A stretch of 6,849 bases of DNA from a virus (taxonomy: Duplodnaviria > Heunggongvirae > Uroviricota > Caudoviricetes): positions 1 to 6,849 of the IMG/VR virus record IMGVR_UViG_2617270976_000007; one strand, 5' to 3'. Positions 1-6,849 of this stretch are shown piece by piece (positions within the stretch are counted from its first letter, which is position 1; each line of letters begins with the position of its first letter). Below the pieces are notes generated by a model. The model saw only the letters and a program-made list of their open reading frames with translations. It searched no databases and was not told the DNA's origin. A program made the position numbers and the translations under genes.

Positions 1-237
1 CTGTCACCCTTTGACGTGGTGATATGGATGACGGATGGCTGGCCGCTGTATGAATCCCGCCTGAAGGGAAAGCTGCACGTAATCAGCAAGCGATATACGC
101 AGCGAATTGAGCGGCATAACCTGAATCTGAGGCAGCACCTGGCACGGCTGGGACGGAAGTCGCTGTCGTTCTCAAAATCGGTGGAGCTGCATGACAAAGT
201 CATCGGGCATTATCTGAACATAAAACACTATCAATAA
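1..237 (+). CDS. insB: IS1 transposase InsB (InsAB' C-terminal portion), 5'-partial; start lies outside the window
   Basis: Frame-1 translation from base 1 reads [78 protein letters not shown], then stop TAA at 235-237. This matches the IS1 InsB C-terminus; the ORF-track Met at 16 is internal. Confidence 0.9.
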
Positions 238-252
238 GTTGGAGTCATTACC
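1..252 (+). mobile_element. IS1 insertion sequence, right-hand portion (window starts inside the element); ends with the IS1 terminal inverted repeat at 230-252
   Basis: Frame 1 encodes the C-terminal part of IS1 InsB; the element ends with ...cactatcaataagttggagtcattacc, the IS1 right end as I remember it. Bases 1-252 are the exact reverse complement of 6570-6821. Confidence 0.93.
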
Positions 253-278
253 TCATTTTTCAGATGGTGGAAAGAACC

Positions 279-2132
279 ATGGCATTTAAACACTATGATG
301 TTGTCAGGGCGGCGTCGCCGTCAGATCTTGCGGAAAAGCTGACACATAAACTGAAAGAGGGCTGGCAGCCGTTTGGTAGTCCGGTGGCCATAACCCCTTA
401 TACCCTGATGCAGGCGATTGCAGCAGAAGGTGATGTGGTCGTCAGTGGTGCAACTGAGCCGGAGTGGTACTACGTCATCGTACTGGCCGGGCAGTCCAAT
501 GCCATGGCTTACGGTGAAGGGCTTCCGCTTCCGGATTCATACGATGCGCCCCATCCGCGCATTAAGCAACTGGCCCGTCGTAACACAGTGACTCCCGGTG
601 GTGAAGTATGCGTATTTAACGACATCATTCCTGCTGACCATTGTCTGCATGATGTTCAGGATATGAGTACGATTAACCATCCCCGGGCTGACCTGAGCAA
701 AGGGCAGTACGGCTGTGTCGGCCAGGGCTTACATATTGCCAAAAAAATGCTTCCGTATATCCCTAATAATGCGGGGATCCTGCTGGTACCATGCTGTCGT
801 GGTGGTTCGGCATTCACCCAGGGCACGGAGGGGACATTCAGCGAGTCCACGGGGGCCAGTCAGGATTCGGCTCGCTGGGGAGTGGGTAAGCCGTTATATC
901 AGGATCTGCTTTTCCGCACGAAGGCAGCATTGCAGAAAAACCCGAAAAACGTTTTGCTGGCGATATGCTGGATGCAGGGGGAATTCGATATGACGAATGC
1001 CAGTTACGCCCAGCAGCCAGCAGCATTTCTTGCAATGGTACAGCAGTTCCGTGCTGACCTTGCCGGGCTGGCAGCGCAGTGTCACGGTGGAAGTCCGGCA
1101 TCAGTCCCCTGGATTTGTGGCGACACGACATACGCGTGGAAACAAGAACACGGTACGCAATATGAAGTGGTATATGGTGCATATAAAGGTAAAGAATCCC
1201 AGCAGATTTATTTTGTTCCCTTTATGACCGATGGTAGCGGAGTTAATACACCGACAAACAACCCGTCAGAAGATCCTGATATTGCCGGGTCTGGTTATTA
1301 CGGTTCGGCATCCCGAACGAACAAAAACTGGGTATCATCAAATCGCCCGACGCATTTCAGCTCATGGGCGCGTCGTGGCATTATTCCCGATCGTATGGCA
1401 ACTGCTATTCTGAACGTAGCCGGGCGCACCTCAGCCTTCATCAGTGGTAAGGCACCGGAAATCAAACCCTCGCCCGGCGGCGACACGCCATCGGTGCCGT
1501 CTGAAGATGCATCCGTACGCACAATCTCCCTGTTGCCGACAGCCGGAGATGCTGCTGCGCAGGGCTGGAGCATTAAGAATGGCGGAATTCAGTTGTCAGA
1601 TGGTGTATTTAAGATCACCAAGCAGAGCAATAAAGCCTGGTCCCTGACGCGCCCGGTGGATGACGCAGTCTCCCTGCTGACACGGGGTGGCAGACTGAGC
1701 TGTAAGTTTCGACTGTCAGGCGCACTGACCAACAACCAGTTCGGTCTGGGAATTTATCTGTATACCGATGTAGCGTTACCTGACGTCGTGGCGATGACCG
1801 GGACTGGTAACCCGTTCCTGATGTCGTTCTTCACCCAGACCACAGACGGCAAACTGAATCTGATGCATCACAAGAAAGCCGGAAACACAAAGTTGGGCGA
1901 GTTCGGGAATTACAGTAACGACTGGCAGACGCTGGAGCTGGTGTTCACCGCCGGCAGTGCCACGGTTACTCCGAAACTGAATGGAGTGGCTGGCCCGGCA
2001 TTCCAGGTCATAAAAGACAGTCTGACAGTGGGACTAAATGCACTGACGCTGACGGATATTACCAAAAATGCAACGTATGGCGTTGAGATAGAAAGTCTGG
2101 TGCTGGAGATAAATGCACCGGCATCATCATAA
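279..2132 (+). CDS. nanS-p: Prophage sialate O-acetylesterase of the NanS/YjhS family (NanS-p-like): N-terminal extension, SGNH/SASA esterase core, C-terminal beta-rich putative carbohydrate-binding domain
   Basis: Long ORF with stop TAA at 2130-2132. The GQSN serine block ([19 protein letters not shown]) and following blocks ([56 protein letters not shown]) match the NanS esterase family as I recall it. About 220 extra C-terminal residues fit the phage-borne NanS-p architecture. Start is uncertain: ATG 279 (GGTGGA 7 nt upstream) or in-frame ATG 264. Confidence 0.8.
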
Positions 2133-2217
2133 AAAGTGAGCCAGTCAAATGGAAGGTATCGTTAAACTCACCGGTAGTGTCAGTGGGTCGTCTGAGACGC
2201 CTGCATGAGTTATCAGA

Positions 2218-2249
2218 GCCATCAGTACTTAACTGGTGGCTTTTTTATT
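2218..2249 (+). terminator. Putative rho-independent terminator between the esterase gene and the holin
   Basis: Stem GCCATCAG (2218-2225), loop TACTTAA, stem CTGGTGGC (2233-2240; 8 bp with one G-U pair), followed by TTTTTTATT (2241-2249). Confidence 0.55.
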
Positions 2250-2281: not shown

Positions 2282-2497
2282 ATGTACCAGATGGAAAAAA
2301 TCACAACAGGTGTGTCATACACCACGTCAGCGGTGGGAACGGGCTACTGGTTCCTGCAGTTGCTGGACAGGGTTTCCCCGTCTCAGTGGGCGGCAATAGG
2401 CGTGCTGGGGAGTCTGCTGTTTGGGCTGCTGACATATCTGACTAACCTGTATTTCAAAATCAGAGAGGACCGTCGTAAGGCTGCACGGGGAGAGTAA
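2282..2497 (+). CDS. S: Class II holin (pinholin) of the phage 21 S21 / EssQ type, 71 aa, with dual-start motif
   Basis: [71 protein letters not shown] has two hydrophobic segments and the charged C-terminus [13 protein letters not shown] typical of S21-like pinholins. Met1 and Met4 give the holin/antiholin dual start. GGAG lies upstream. The 106-aa ORF-track version (2177) runs through the terminator and is not the real start. Confidence 0.9.
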
Positions 2498-2501
2498 TTC
2501 A

Positions 2502-2846
2502 ATGACTCAAAACTATGAACTGATTGTGAAAGGGATCCGCAATTTTGAGAATAAAGTTACGGTAACTTTAGCGTTACGGGACAAAAAACGCTTTGACGGT
2601 GAAATTTTTGACCTGGACATCTCGCTGGACCGTGTTGAAGGTGCCGCGCTGGAGTTTTATGAGGCAGCAGCCAGAAGGAGCATCAGACAGGTCTTCCTGG
2701 ATGTTGCTGCCGGGTTATGTGAAGGGGATGAGCAGTCGCCGGAAAAGCGCCCCGTAATTTTAGAGGCGCAGGATGTGTTGATAACCTACAGAGGAAAACT
2801 ACCGGGAATAATTACGGGTTCTCTGAAGAGTCCGCCGAAATGGTAA
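2502..2846 (+). CDS. Small conserved lysis-cassette protein, 114 aa, at the position ydfR (DUF1327) occupies between essQ and rrrQ in Qin-type prophages; function unknown
   Basis: ATG at 2502 is 4 nt after the holin stop, with GGAGAG 7 nt upstream, which implies translational coupling. Placement between pinholin and SAR endolysin matches the essQ-ydfR-rrrQ order. Sequence identity to YdfR was not verified. Confidence 0.65.
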   Translation: MTQNYELIVKGIRNFENKVTVTLALRDKKRFDGEIFDLDISLDRVEGAALEFYEAAARRSIRQVFLDVAAGLCEGDEQSPEKRPVILEAQDVLITYRGKLPGIITGSLKSPPKW

Positions 2847-3084
2847 TTTTACCAGCATATTTTTCATCCAGTAATACAGCAAGCCGCCTGAAAGAGTCTT
2901 GTTGTTCCTGAGACCATTTGGGATTGCATGATTCAAACTGGATTGATGCCAGCGTTGATTGCATCTGTTCCCTTGGAATTGAGAATGCCAGATATGAGAA
3001 GGCGACGGTAAGGGTATTCACGTCTTCCCGAAGCCTAGAAATGCTGTCGAGCAACTCCTGTAGAGAAATGGTGTTATTGTCCAT
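2812..3084 (-). CDS. Hypothetical 90-aa protein encoded antisense inside the lysis cassette; its 3' end overlaps the previous gene by 35 bp
   Basis: Minus-strand ATG at 3084 is preceded by GAGGA with 6-nt spacing (ATCATGAGGATTATTTATG). Translation MDNNTISLQELLDSISRLREDVNTLTVAFSYLAFSIPREQMQSTLASIQFESCNPKWSQEQQDSFRRLAVLLDEKYAGKITISADSSENP is helix-like with a balanced composition. The segment is AT-richer than the flanking lysis genes. No homolog recognised. Confidence 0.4.
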   Translation of the reverse strand: MDNNTISLQELLDSISRLREDVNTLTVAFSYLAFSIPREQMQSTLASIQFESCNPKWSQEQQDSFRRLAVLLDEKYAGKITISADSSENP

Positions 3085-3189: not shown

Positions 3190-3735
3190 ATGAACGCAAA
3201 AATCAGATACGGCCTGTCGGCTGCCGTTCTGGCGCTGATTGCCGCTGGTGCGCCTGCGCCTGACATTCTCGACCAGTTTCTGGATGAAAAGGAAGGTAAC
3301 CACACCACGGCATACCGTGATGGTGCGGGTATCTGGACCATCTGCCGCGGTGCCATCCTGGTGGATGGCAAACCTGTCGTTCCGGGCATGAAGTTGTCGA
3401 AGGAAAAATGCGACCGGGTTACTGACATGCAGATGCGTCAGCGTGATGTTGCTGCGCTCGATGCAAAATACACGAAGGAGTTAGCTGATGCGAAAGCTGA
3501 AAATGAAACTCTTCGCGCTGACGTTGCCGCTGGTCGTAAGCGCCTGCGTATCAACGCCACCTGTCCAGGTCCCGTGCGTGAAGCCACCGGCACCGCCCGC
3601 GTGGATAATGCAACCGGCCCCCAACTGGCAGACACCGTTACACGGGATTATTTCACCCTCAGAGAGCGGCTGATGACGATGCAGAAGCAACTGGAAGGGG
3701 CGCAGGAATATATCCGTACTCAGTGCCTGAAATAA
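3190..3735 (+). pseudogene. In-frame fusion of SAR endolysin R (RrrQ-like, N-terminal ~76 aa) to the i-spanin Rz C-terminal periplasmic domain; deletion junction near 3419-3424
   Basis: Residues 1-76 (MNAKIRYGLSAAVLALIAAGAPAPDILDQFLDEKEGNHTTAYRDGAGIWTICRGA...KEKCDRV) match the RrrQ/R21-type lysozyme N-terminus, including the SAR-like Ala/Gly-rich segment and the E-x8-D-x5-T catalytic spacing. From TDMQMRQRDVAALDAKYTKELADAKAEN onward the protein matches lambda Rz up to its C-terminus ...LEGAQEYIRTQCLK. The lysozyme C-terminal lobe and the Rz N-terminal membrane anchor are missing. Confidence 0.8.
3488..3673 (+). CDS. Rz1: Rz1 outer-membrane lipoprotein (o-spanin), embedded in the +1 frame of the Rz portion
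   Basis: MRKLKMKLFALTLPLVVSACVSTPPVQVPCVKPPAPPAWIMQPAPNWQTPLHGIISPSESG has a signal peptide with lipobox VSAC and the proline-rich mature region, closely like lambda Rz1. AAGGAG sits 7 nt upstream of the ATG. Confidence 0.85.
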   Translation: MRKLKMKLFALTLPLVVSACVSTPPVQVPCVKPPAPPAWIMQPAPNWQTPLHGIISPSESG

Positions 3736-4932: not shown

Positions 4933-5481
4933 ATGAACGTCAATAAGAAAAAACTGGCCGATATTTTTGGCGTTGATGTCAGGACCATCACCGCCTGGCA
5001 GAGTCAGGGGTTACCACTAGTTTCTGGTGGAGGGAAAGGGACTGAATCAGTTTTTGATACAACTGCTGCCATTCAGTGGTATGCGCAGAGGGAAGCTGAT
5101 ATTGAAAACGAAAAACTCCGTAAAGAGATCGAGGATTTGAGGGCTGCCAGCGAATCAGACCTTCAGCCCGGCACCATTGATTACGAACGTTACCGACTGA
5201 TGAAGGCACAGGCCGATGCACAGGAGCTGAAAAATGCTCGTGAGGAAGGCCTTGTCCTCGAGACGGAGTTATTTACCTACATCTTTCAGCGAGTGGCACA
5301 GAATATATCAGGGATCCTTGTCCGTGTCCCTCAGACACTGCAGCGTAAATACCCTGATATATCACCCGTACATCTTGATGCTGTGAAAACTGAAATCGCG
5401 AAAGCATCCGATGTGGCTTCTGAAGCCGGTGAGAATGTGCGCAGGTGGATTGATGATTTCAGACGAACTGAGGGCGGCTAA
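4933..5481 (+). CDS. nu1: Terminase small subunit (lambda Nu1 / NohA family), apparently full length, 182 aa
   Basis: [42 protein letters not shown]...[48 protein letters not shown] aligns along its length with lambda Nu1 (MEVNKKQLADIFGASIRTIQNWQEQGMPVLRGGGKG...). It sits directly downstream of cosB and its stop (TAA 5479-5481) overlaps the start of the next gene. Confidence 0.9.
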
Positions 5482-6103
5482 TTCTGCAGGAGCGATAGCA
5501 ACCGGCCTCCTTGCGCTAAAAATTCCTGTCCCTCTGACGACAGTTCAGTGGGCAGATCGACATTATTACCTTCCGAAAGAGTCATCTTACACCCCGGGGC
5601 GGTGGGAAACACTGCCGTTTCAGGTTGCCATCATGAACAGCATGGGGAATGACCGGATCCGCACTGTTAATCTGATTAAATCTGCCCGTGTTGGTTATAC
5701 AAAGATGTTGCTGGGAGTGGAGGCTTATTTTATTGAGCATAAATCACGCAACAGCCTTCTTTTCCAGCCCACGGATTCTGCTGCTGAAGATTTTATGAAA
5801 TCTCATGTGGAACCCACGATCAGGGATGTGCCGGTTTTACTCGATCTTGCACCGTGGTTTGGGCGTAAACATCGTGATAATACCCTCACGCTGAAACGTT
5901 TTTCATCGGGCGTGGGCTTCTGGTGCCTGGGCGGGGCTGCCGCTAAAAACTACCGTGAAAAATCCGTGGACGTGGTCTGCTATGACGAACTTTCCTCGTT
6001 CGAACCGGATGTCGAAAAAGAGGGTTCGCCAACCCTGCTTGGGGATAAACGTATTGAGGGCTCTGTATGGCCCAAGCCGCCGTGCAGGAGAACCAGCGAG
6101 TGA
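5453..6103 (+). pseudogene. A: Terminase large subunit (lambda gpA family), N-terminal ~216 aa only; truncated by an internal deletion with the junction near 6077-6080
   Basis: ...VQWADRHYYLPKESSYTPGRWETLPFQVAIMNSMGNDRIRTVNLIKSARVGYTKMLLGVEAYFIEHK...GFWCLGGAAAKNYREKSVDVVCYDELSSFEPDVEKEGSPTLLGDKRIEGSVWPK matches lambda gpA residues ~35-205. Similarity ends after GSVWPK and the frame stops at 6101-6103, whereas full gpA is about 640 aa. Start codon is uncertain (5453, 5435 or 5411, all in frame). Confidence 0.85.
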
Positions 6104-6569
6104 TGGGGATCCTGACATGCCAGGAAGCGAAAGGACGTGAACAGCTTGCCACGATGCTGGCAGGGCAACAGGGCATGAGCGTTGAACAGGCCCGGGCGAT
6201 TCTGGCCGCGGCGGCACCGCAGCAGCCGGTGGCATCCGCGCAGAGTGAAGCCGATCGCATTATGGCGTGTGAAGAAGCGAACGGTCGTGAACAACTGGCA
6301 GTAACGCTGGCGGCGATGCCGGAGATGACGGTGGAAAAAGCCCGCCCGATCCTGGCTGCTTCACCGCAGGCGAATGCCGGACCATCACTCCGTGATCAGA
6401 TCATGGCCCTGGATGAGGCAAAAGGGGCTGAGGCGCAGGCTGAACAGCTGGCTGCCTGCCCGGGAATGACCGTGGAGAGCGCCCGGGCTGTGCTGGCTGC
6501 GGGATCAGGTAAGGCAGAACCGGTCTCTGCATCCACAACCGCCCTGTTTGAACATTTCATGGCGAACCA
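6079..6569 (+). pseudogene. Fragment of a repeat-containing phage protein (three ~45-aa tandem repeats; possibly the C-terminal region of a head protease/scaffold-type morphogenesis protein); 5' end set by the deletion junction, 3' end interrupted by IS1
   Basis: Frame-1 translation contains three related units: RVMGILTCQEAKGREQLATMLAG..MSVEQARAILAAA; RIMACEEANGREQLAVTLAAMPEMTVEKARPILAAS; QIMALDEAKGAEAQAEQLAACPGMTVESARAVLAAG. The last codons (VMTPTY, stop) are IS1-derived, so the native C-terminus is lost at 6570. Functional assignment is a guess. Confidence 0.4.
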
Positions 6570-6849
6570 GGTAATGACTCCAACTTATTGATAGTGTTTT
6601 ATGTTCAGATAATGCCCGATGACTTTGTCATGCAGCTCCACCGATTTTGAGAACGACAGCGACTTCCGTCCCAGCCGTGCCAGGTGCTGCCTCAGATTCA
6701 GGTTATGCCGCTCAATTCGCTGCGTATATCGCTTGCTGATTACGTGCAGCTTTCCCTTCAGGCGGGATTCATACAGCGGCCAGCCATCCGTCATCCATAT
6801 CACCACGTCAAAGGGTGACAGCAGGCTCATAAGACGCCCCAGCGTCGCC
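6570..6849 (-). mobile_element. IS1 insertion sequence, right-hand portion in reverse orientation (extends beyond the window); terminal inverted repeat GGTAATGACTCCAACTTATTGAT at 6570-6592
   Basis: 6570-6821 is the exact reverse complement of 1-252; starts with the canonical IS1 terminal repeat and encodes InsB on the minus strand. Confidence 0.93.
6585..6849 (-). CDS. insB: IS1 transposase InsB (InsAB' C-terminal portion), 5'-partial; coding continues beyond the window edge
   Basis: Minus-strand translation ...[87 protein letters not shown], stop at 6585-6587; identical to the InsB fragment at 1-237. Confidence 0.9.

Follow-up and report, generated by a model that had tools for sequence, protein, structure and literature searches.

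An IS1 right end next to an intact nanS-p-type esterase gene in a decayed, non-Stx lambdoid prophage of Escherichia coli

The window, that is, the whole 6,849-nt stretch of DNA that was analysed, begins with the right end of an IS1 element, which is followed after a short spacer by an intact open reading frame (ORF) for a NanS-p-type sialate esterase and by an intrinsic terminator. This arrangement is best read, with good confidence, as an ordinary IS1 insertion beside an intact nanS-p gene in a decayed, non-Stx lambdoid prophage, in which the view upstream is limited by the contig, expression of the esterase would be reduced and the change would belong to neutral decay. An earlier reading of the letters by themselves (the sequence-only reading) had pointed to the IS1 end, the intact esterase frame and the terminator, and these observations are confirmed. 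The interpretation that it attached to them is partly supported: loss of cargo genes, separation of the esterase from the late operon and IS1-driven expression are unproven.

The esterase gene and its product

The gene that follows IS1 is an intact and ordinary NanS-p, 98-99% identical to alleles of ST131-type and O104:H4 prophages and already present in GenBank. Its features are as follows.

279..2132, + strand: nanS-p-type sialate O-acetylesterase CDS, 617 aa (KDY11481.1 / WP_032208748.1)
285-428, + strand: DUF1737, residues 3-50 (PF08410, E=1.8e-15)
453-1415, + strand: NanS-like SASA esterase (PF03629, residues 66-262 in Pfam)
495-497 and 1353-1355, + strand: serine codon of the GQSN motif (Ser73) and conserved histidine codon (His359, in HFSS)
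1539-2117, + strand: lectin-like DUF6645 (PF20350, residues 467-577, E=2e-19)

The assignment to the NanS-p type, which the sequence-only reading had proposed, is borne out by the combination of DUF1737, SASA and DUF6645 domains, by structural matches and by the position of the gene in the late region. For residues 59-379 the match is chromosomal NanS (YjhS; PDB 3pt5, E=8.5e-122), and for residues 421-613 it is a crystallised NanS-p C-terminal domain (PDB 6yp6, E=9e-31). Ser73 and His359 align to the same residues of NanS, where Ser19 and His301 are what we take to be the catalytic pair; a catalytic role of the NanS serine and histidine was reportedly described by Rangarajan and colleagues in 2011.

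Alignment of the N-terminus had been put forward as a check on this gene, and it shows an intact protein: DUF1737 starts at residue 3, the sequence does not differ from WP_016230612 over residues 1-156, and the start is that of intact homologues. Both the start and the length of the 279-2132 ORF exactly match genes annotated by PGAP as 'SASA family carbohydrate esterase' in intact prophages. WP_016230612, an iraM-linked allele from an E. coli faecal isolate (locus L003), is identical at 613 of the 617 residues, and the allele of an O104:H4 strain from Germany at 606 of 617. Relative to the closest allele, the gene carries 10 synonymous and four non-synonymous nucleotide differences, with no frameshift and no stop, and three conservative substitutions in the esterase (L157M, G406V and L584V) are private to it. 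A mosaic origin of the gene was considered and rejected, as identity to the iraM-linked allele is uniform at about 99% and there is no recombination breakpoint.

NanS-p enzymes of enterohaemorrhagic and enteroaggregative-haemorrhagic strains (933W L0105/z1466, phi24B vb_24B_21 and the five O104:H4 enzymes) contain the same three domains and are likewise encoded directly upstream of holin S. Full-length identity is 53% to 933W L0105, the prototype NanS-p, and 98% to the O104:H4 allele, but the esterase described here lies in a non-Stx prophage with iraM rather than stxAB upstream. Chromosomal NanS shares the esterase core (residues 59-379, including the GQSN serine and the HFSS histidine); unlike the prophage protein, it has neither DUF1737 nor DUF6645 and is encoded in the nanCMS operon. 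According to a review, all five NanS-p enzymes of O104:H4 strain C227-11 are active esterases (PMC8065619). From this and the 98% identity to the O104:H4 protein, we infer that the product may act on Neu5,9Ac2 or on O-acetylated sialic acids of mucin.

Downstream genes and decay of the prophage

Behind the esterase gene, the order of holin S, ydfR, R'-'Rz and Nu1 is colinear with that of intact prophages. As in other lambdoid late regions that carry it, nanS-p stands immediately before the lysis genes.

2215..2249, + strand: intrinsic terminator between nanS-p and holin S (12-bp stem and 5-nt loop, hairpin 2215-2243, followed by a T-run)
2282..2497, + strand: holin S (P21 type), intact, 71 aa (PF04971, E=9e-33)
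2502..2846, + strand: YdfR/DUF1327 gene, intact (PF07041; annotation of homologues)
3190..3735, + strand: chimeric R'-'Rz ORF (PF00959, residues 33-85; PF03245, residues 72-179; BLAST map against locus L001)
3488-3673: embedded Rz1 ORF, intact
4933..5481, + strand: terminase small subunit Nu1, intact (PF07471, E=1e-85)
5453..6075, + strand: terminase large subunit gpA, N-terminal (ATPase) fragment only (partial match to PF05876)
6076..6569, + strand: S49 peptidase/scaffold gene, internal fragment (100% identical to L001 16966-17461, inside CDS 16041-17546)

The terminator that the sequence-only reading had placed downstream of the gene is real. Its hairpin has a folding energy of -17 kcal/mol (z = -4.4), and none of 200 shuffled sequences folds as well. 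The same hairpin is found in the intact prophage, at L003 8963-8991, and it is therefore a native element and not a peculiarity of this locus. No Rfam family was found anywhere in the window.

Beyond the holin and ydfR, the late region is damaged at several points. A 751-bp deletion with its junction at 3419-3421 and 3-bp microhomology has joined the N-terminus of the lysozyme (about 77 aa) to Rz, and the endolysin is destroyed. A second deletion of about 4.0 kb lies at 6075, where the BLAST map jumps (window 6075/6074 to L001 12966/16966); lost with it are the remainder of gpA, the genes for head-tail joining and portal, and a 5' portion of the S49 peptidase gene. The S49 gene is interrupted once more by a second IS1 at 6570, 85 nt short of the stop codon. 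Because of the R-Rz fusion, the gpA-S49 deletion and this second IS1, the prophage is unable to lyse the cell or to package DNA. Lacking endolysin, a full terminase and the portal, it is a decaying remnant.

The IS1 right end, its junction and the ends of the contig

The two IS1 fragments and the spacer between the first of them and the esterase gene are located as follows.

1..252, + strand: IS1 right-end fragment, comprising the C-terminal 78 codons of InsB (stop 235-237) and the terminal inverted repeat; the contig starts within IS1
253..278, + strand: native spacer, 26 nt, TCATTTTTCAGATGGTGGAAAGAACC, a 100% match to uninterrupted prophages (aligned to L003 7001-7026)
6570..6849, - strand: right-end fragment of a second IS1, in inverted orientation to the first (PF03400); the contig stops within it

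InsB (PF03400) was detected by Pfam on both end fragments, including the product of 1-237. In the first fragment the terminal inverted repeat reads ...AAGTTGGAGTCATTACC and its last base is 252; the tip, ...TTGGAGTCATTACC, recurs unchanged at the right end of a complete IS1 in strain razor3, and the fragment is 99.2% identical to a match annotated as IS1A (H81). The transposase of this IS1 and the esterase are read in the same direction. Bases 253-340, which comprise the spacer and the first 62 nt of the gene, match many uninterrupted E. coli prophages at 100% identity. The spacer contains a Shine-Dalgarno (SD)-like GGTGGA at 266-271 and an alternative in-frame ATG at 264-266. Close adjacency of IS1 to the gene, as given in the sequence-only reading, thus holds, with the tip at 252 and the ATG at 279; the distance of 27 bp stated there does not, as the gap (253-278) is 26 nt.

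Under the preferred reading, IS1 inserted in the AT-rich iraM-nanS-p spacer, 26 nt upstream of the start codon of the esterase and in the same orientation; the esterase ORF, the SD-like sequence and all three domains are untouched. Under simple insertion, iraM or the sequence ...AAAGAATCATTTTTC would be expected next to the IRL end of this IS1 copy, with the duplicated sequence TCATTTTTC(A) on that side.

By an exact match of its protein, the window is the whole of a draft contig, JNQT01000097.1 (6849 bp; assembly GCA_000704325.1, E. coli 2-316-03_S4_C2). An origin in Shigella, considered in view of the density of IS1, was rejected on this identification. Its segment 6570-6849 is 100% identical over 252 nt to the reverse complement of 1-252, so that inverted IS1 ends stand at both termini, with 252 nt and 280 nt of the element visible at the respective ends. 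A complete IS1 measures 768 bp, carries both inverted repeats and lies between target duplications of 9-10 bp. Short-read assemblies typically leave a short contig bounded on both sides by one repeat where they break at a collapsed multicopy insertion sequence. Termination of the contig inside IS1 at both ends reflects short-read repeat collapse, and what looks like 'replacement' of upstream DNA is an assembly horizon. Because the contig ends inside IS1 and the DNA on the far side lies out of view, neither replacement of the upstream region nor loss of cargo is derivable from the window, and the claim that IS1 had replaced the DNA in front of the esterase and removed whatever preceded it finds no support. 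More generally, where one repeat stands at either end of a window, a whole short-read contig is the probable explanation, and the 'missing' flanks should not count as biology.

Native upstream context and IS1 insertions in other genomes

In intact relatives, the region upstream of the esterase is ordered as follows: the Q antiterminator, a small ORF, a DNA methyltransferase gene, tRNA-Ile/Arg, DUF3927, iraM on the - strand, an AT-rich spacer of about 260 bp, and nanS-p. In L003 the native spacer occupies 6767-7026. In the closest relatives iraM is divergent from nanS-p, and stx is absent upstream. The framing of this locus as part of a Stx-type phage, adopted in the sequence-only reading, is therefore not a fitting one, as the prophages that both spacer and gene match are non-Stx and have iraM in front of nanS-p.

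A BLAST search of 5426 complete E. coli genomes identified three with IS1 just upstream of this nanS-p allele. In one of them, razor3 (NZ_CP176051.1), the element is co-oriented with the gene and its tip is 25 nt from the ATG, 1 bp off the junction in the window. The orientation and the esterase allele family are the same in both strains, the late region being otherwise complete in razor3. There, a 10-bp direct duplication, CATTTTTCAG, borders IS1, and the Q gene, the methylase gene, the tRNAs and iraM are all retained upstream, which marks the event as a simple insertion. The razor3 element is only about 93% identical to the copy in the window. As the two elements are different IS1 isoforms (about 93% identity) and their junctions are shifted by 1 bp, the two events are independent. 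Since this near-identical insertion keeps its upstream genes, adjacency of IS1 to the esterase does not imply upstream loss. In the other two genomes, AR_0058 and an ST131 strain, IS1 lies inside iraM.

The junction of the window itself is absent, in identical form, from the 5426 complete E. coli genomes (BLAST); it is likewise absent from the species-representative genomes of GTDB (exact-junction scan) and from JGI metagenome contigs (gapped-junction scan). The exact esterase protein and the R'-'Rz fusion were found on this contig only, which points to a singleton event. Stx2a phages are reported to carry elements of other families (IS629/IS1203 and ISEc8) within nanS-p or between it and stx (PMC10462455). 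Those cases likewise place insertion sequences in the Q-S late region beside nanS-p, and the present locus adds to its known heterogeneity; it differs from them in that the element is IS1, the prophage lacks stx and the insertion site is the iraM-nanS-p spacer.

A more drastic course of events is possible, if doubtful: an IS1-mediated adjacent deletion or inversion could have removed or displaced the Q-pR'-tRNA-iraM segment, leaving nanS-p as a silent, promoterless relic that has not yet mutated. Such a history is in line with further damage to the same prophage (two deletions and the inverted second IS1) and with the lack of a promoter-like site upstream of the esterase ORF, and IS1 is known to generate both kinds of rearrangement (PMC9330008). 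The present data are, however, equally compatible with simple insertion, for which razor3 offers a precedent. Against a silent relic, the ORF shows no inactivating change and its differences are mostly synonymous, although these may predate the insertion.

The inverted pair of elements also raises the idea of a composite transposon. Inverted IS1 copies bound known composite transposons such as Tn1681, and a Tn1681-like unit with 6.3 kb between its inverted copies could in principle mobilise nanS-p together with the remnants of the lysis and terminase genes. The two copies are indeed identical over the visible 252 nt and inverted, with their outer (IRL) ends pointing away. The interior is nevertheless colinear with ordinary prophages, both IS1 junctions fall at ordinary prophage positions, and no second occurrence of the module or of its junctions turned up in complete E. 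coli genomes, GTDB representatives or JGI metagenomes; neither full-length IS1 copies nor an outer target duplication is visible. Such a transposon is thus extremely improbable.

Transcription of the esterase gene

Simple insertion of IS1 by an intact gene, the preferred reading, leaves the question of how the esterase would be transcribed. In the intact prophage, a consensus scan of the AT-rich iraM-nanS-p spacer found no + strand promoter-like site, and there is for this reason no sign that IS1 severed a private nanS-p promoter. In quantitative PCR, nanS-p rises by 1-2.4 logs on induction with mitomycin C (PMC10462455). Taken together, the promoter-free spacer and the mitomycin C response fit a gene served by the Q-dependent late transcript.

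The terminal repeat of IS1 contains an outward -35 box, and the element is able to form hybrid promoters with flanking DNA (PMC8764528, PMC9330008). Such promoters need a correctly spaced -10 box, and other IS1 insertions have left expression lower or unchanged (PMC8764528). The best candidate at the present junction is the following.

239..268, + strand: candidate IS1/flank hybrid promoter, TTGGAG (239-244), 18-nt spacer, GATGGT (263-268), matching 6 of 12 consensus positions

Which hexamer IS1 supplies as its exact -35 box is assumed here, and the pattern sought was such an outward box in the IS1 end with a -10 hexamer 16-18 nt away in the flank. A strict scan detected no promoter-like site in 1-2600, and a relaxed scan, which called pairs with at least 7/12 matches and required A2 and T6, detected none across the IS1/flank junction; consensus scans of this kind may miss weak or non-sigma-70 promoters. 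Inspection by eye of 240-278 gave no extended -10 element (TGn plus hexamer). Transcription from the best candidate would begin so close to the gene that the leader is about 3-4 nt and excludes the SD-like GGTGGA. The TTGGAG-18-GATGGT pair is accordingly judged non-functional or very weak on these sequence features, and the hybrid promoter proposed in the sequence-only reading is not supported at this junction. The IS1 fusion promoters described previously (Prentki et al. 1986; afaA in ST131, acrEF and blaTEM-6) share an outward, TTG-containing hexamer that faces the downstream gene, but the flank here lacks the correctly spaced -10 hexamer.

A different matter is read-out from within the element. 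No + strand terminator-like hairpin was found in 1-278, and since IS1 and the esterase point the same way and the path from insB to the ATG is free of such hairpins, read-out is physically possible. In the classical picture of IS1, the promoter of its transposase is weak and repressed by InsA, and the largely untranslated insB region makes IS1 transcriptionally polar, an effect that antiterminated polymerase overrides. On the preferred reading, IS1 would separate nanS-p from its usual Q-antiterminated pR' late transcript and would create no functional hybrid promoter, so that transcription of the esterase would depend entirely on polymerases crossing IS1. Their source might be weak, InsA-repressed read-through from the transposase promoter or, if Q-pR' still lies beyond IS1, Q-modified late transcription. 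As a net prediction, we infer that expression of the esterase is reduced, not enhanced.

The opposite outcome was envisaged in the sequence-only reading, in which IS1 replaced the late-operon DNA and its read-out, or a hybrid promoter, would give constitutive, lysis-independent esterase that aids growth on O-acetylated sialic acids. Several features agree with that account, among them the co-orientation of IS1, the hairpin-free path to the gene, the occurrence of two independent co-oriented insertions 1 bp apart, and an esterase ORF that is intact while the endolysin and the packaging genes are destroyed. It is very improbable all the same: the best hexamer pair remains below the 7/12 screen and its leader is devoid of an SD sequence, IS1 without a well-spaced -10 box lowers expression or leaves it unchanged (PMC8764528), the configuration is a singleton, and upstream loss is not demonstrable where the contig simply ends.

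A related proposal holds that the iraM-nanS-p spacer is a recurrent, selected target of IS1, at which co-oriented insertions 25-26 nt upstream uncouple the esterase from Q-dependent, lysis-linked expression and give low constitutive read-out from IS1. The pair of independent insertions in the window strain and razor3, 1 bp apart and alike in orientation, might suggest selection; an IS1 hot spot in AT-rich DNA explains both equally well, and selection at this site is very improbable. The IS1 event is instead read as part of neutral prophage decay and would not represent adaptive rewiring.

Biological significance

The significance of the locus is small, as NanS-p esterases are well-characterised products of multi-copy prophage genes and insertions of IS elements in the Q-S region are already documented. 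Should the spacer be a selected IS1 target, the locus would represent a phage moron domesticated inside a prophage that is past lysis and packaging. It would then offer a small, neat case in which an IS element has domesticated a metabolic gene of phage origin that bears on mucus foraging.

Esterase allele and adjoining prophage genes

Relative to all three relatives with which it was compared, the NanS-p-type esterase encoded in the window carries three private substitutions, all of which are conservative and none of which lies within the GQSN or His motifs:

window 747, codon 157: L157M
window 1495, codon 406: G406V
window 2028, codon 584: L584V

Two deletions and an antisense reading frame characterize the prophage genes 3' of the esterase:

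window 2812-3084, - strand: conserved hypothetical ORF of 90 aa, overlapping the 3' end of ydfR in antisense orientation
window 3190-3735: chimeric lysozyme-Rz ORF, junction at 3419-3421
window 6074-6076: junction of a deletion of about 4.0 kb, with a 2-bp overlap

The antisense ORF matches no Pfam family and is carried by intact prophages, where it is annotated as WP_000369850.1. In the lysis genes, a 751-bp deletion with 3 bp of microhomology joins about 77 N-terminal residues of the lysozyme to Rz, and among a collection of 15 billion proteins the fused product occurs in this contig only. NCBI lists this chimeric ORF under the name "lysis system i-spanin subunit Rz" (WP_113707146.1). The larger deletion removed the head-tail joining and portal genes, such that the ATPase domain of terminase gpA now abuts the middle part of the S49 peptidase/scaffold gene. 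The remnant of the latter (window 6100-6560) contains three loose repeat units of about 40 aa (…EEAxGREQLA…MTVExARxILAA…), which are native to the intact gene (100% identical at 16966-17461 of the reference prophage L001) and were not called as DNA repeats by Tandem Repeats Finder.

IS1 and the region upstream of nanS-p

In intact relatives, GC-rich hairpin units (…CCCCTCTCCGGAGGGGC…) are repeated between the prophage tRNAs and nanS-p (L001 5100-5780 and L003 6235-6400), adjoined by small annotated pseudogene fragments. These repeats look like duplicated terminator-like modules, and the window contains none of this region.

The window constitutes one entire short-read contig (JNQT01000097.1), whose termini are both formed by the same IS1 end:

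window 1-252 and 6570-6849: inverted copies, 100% identical to each other
L004 (E. coli razor3 locus) 8295-9063: independent IS1, same orientation as the window's IS1 next to nanS-p

The inverted arrangement at the contig termini thus implies at least two IS1 copies with their IRR ends facing the 6.3-kb segment. The razor3 element is another isoform (about 93% identical), flanked by a 10-bp target duplication (CATTTTTCAG) and located 1 bp away from the window's insertion. In AR_0058 (L005) and ST131 strain 4224, iraM itself is interrupted by IS1. Around iraM and nanS-p there thus appears to be a local hot spot for IS1 targeting.
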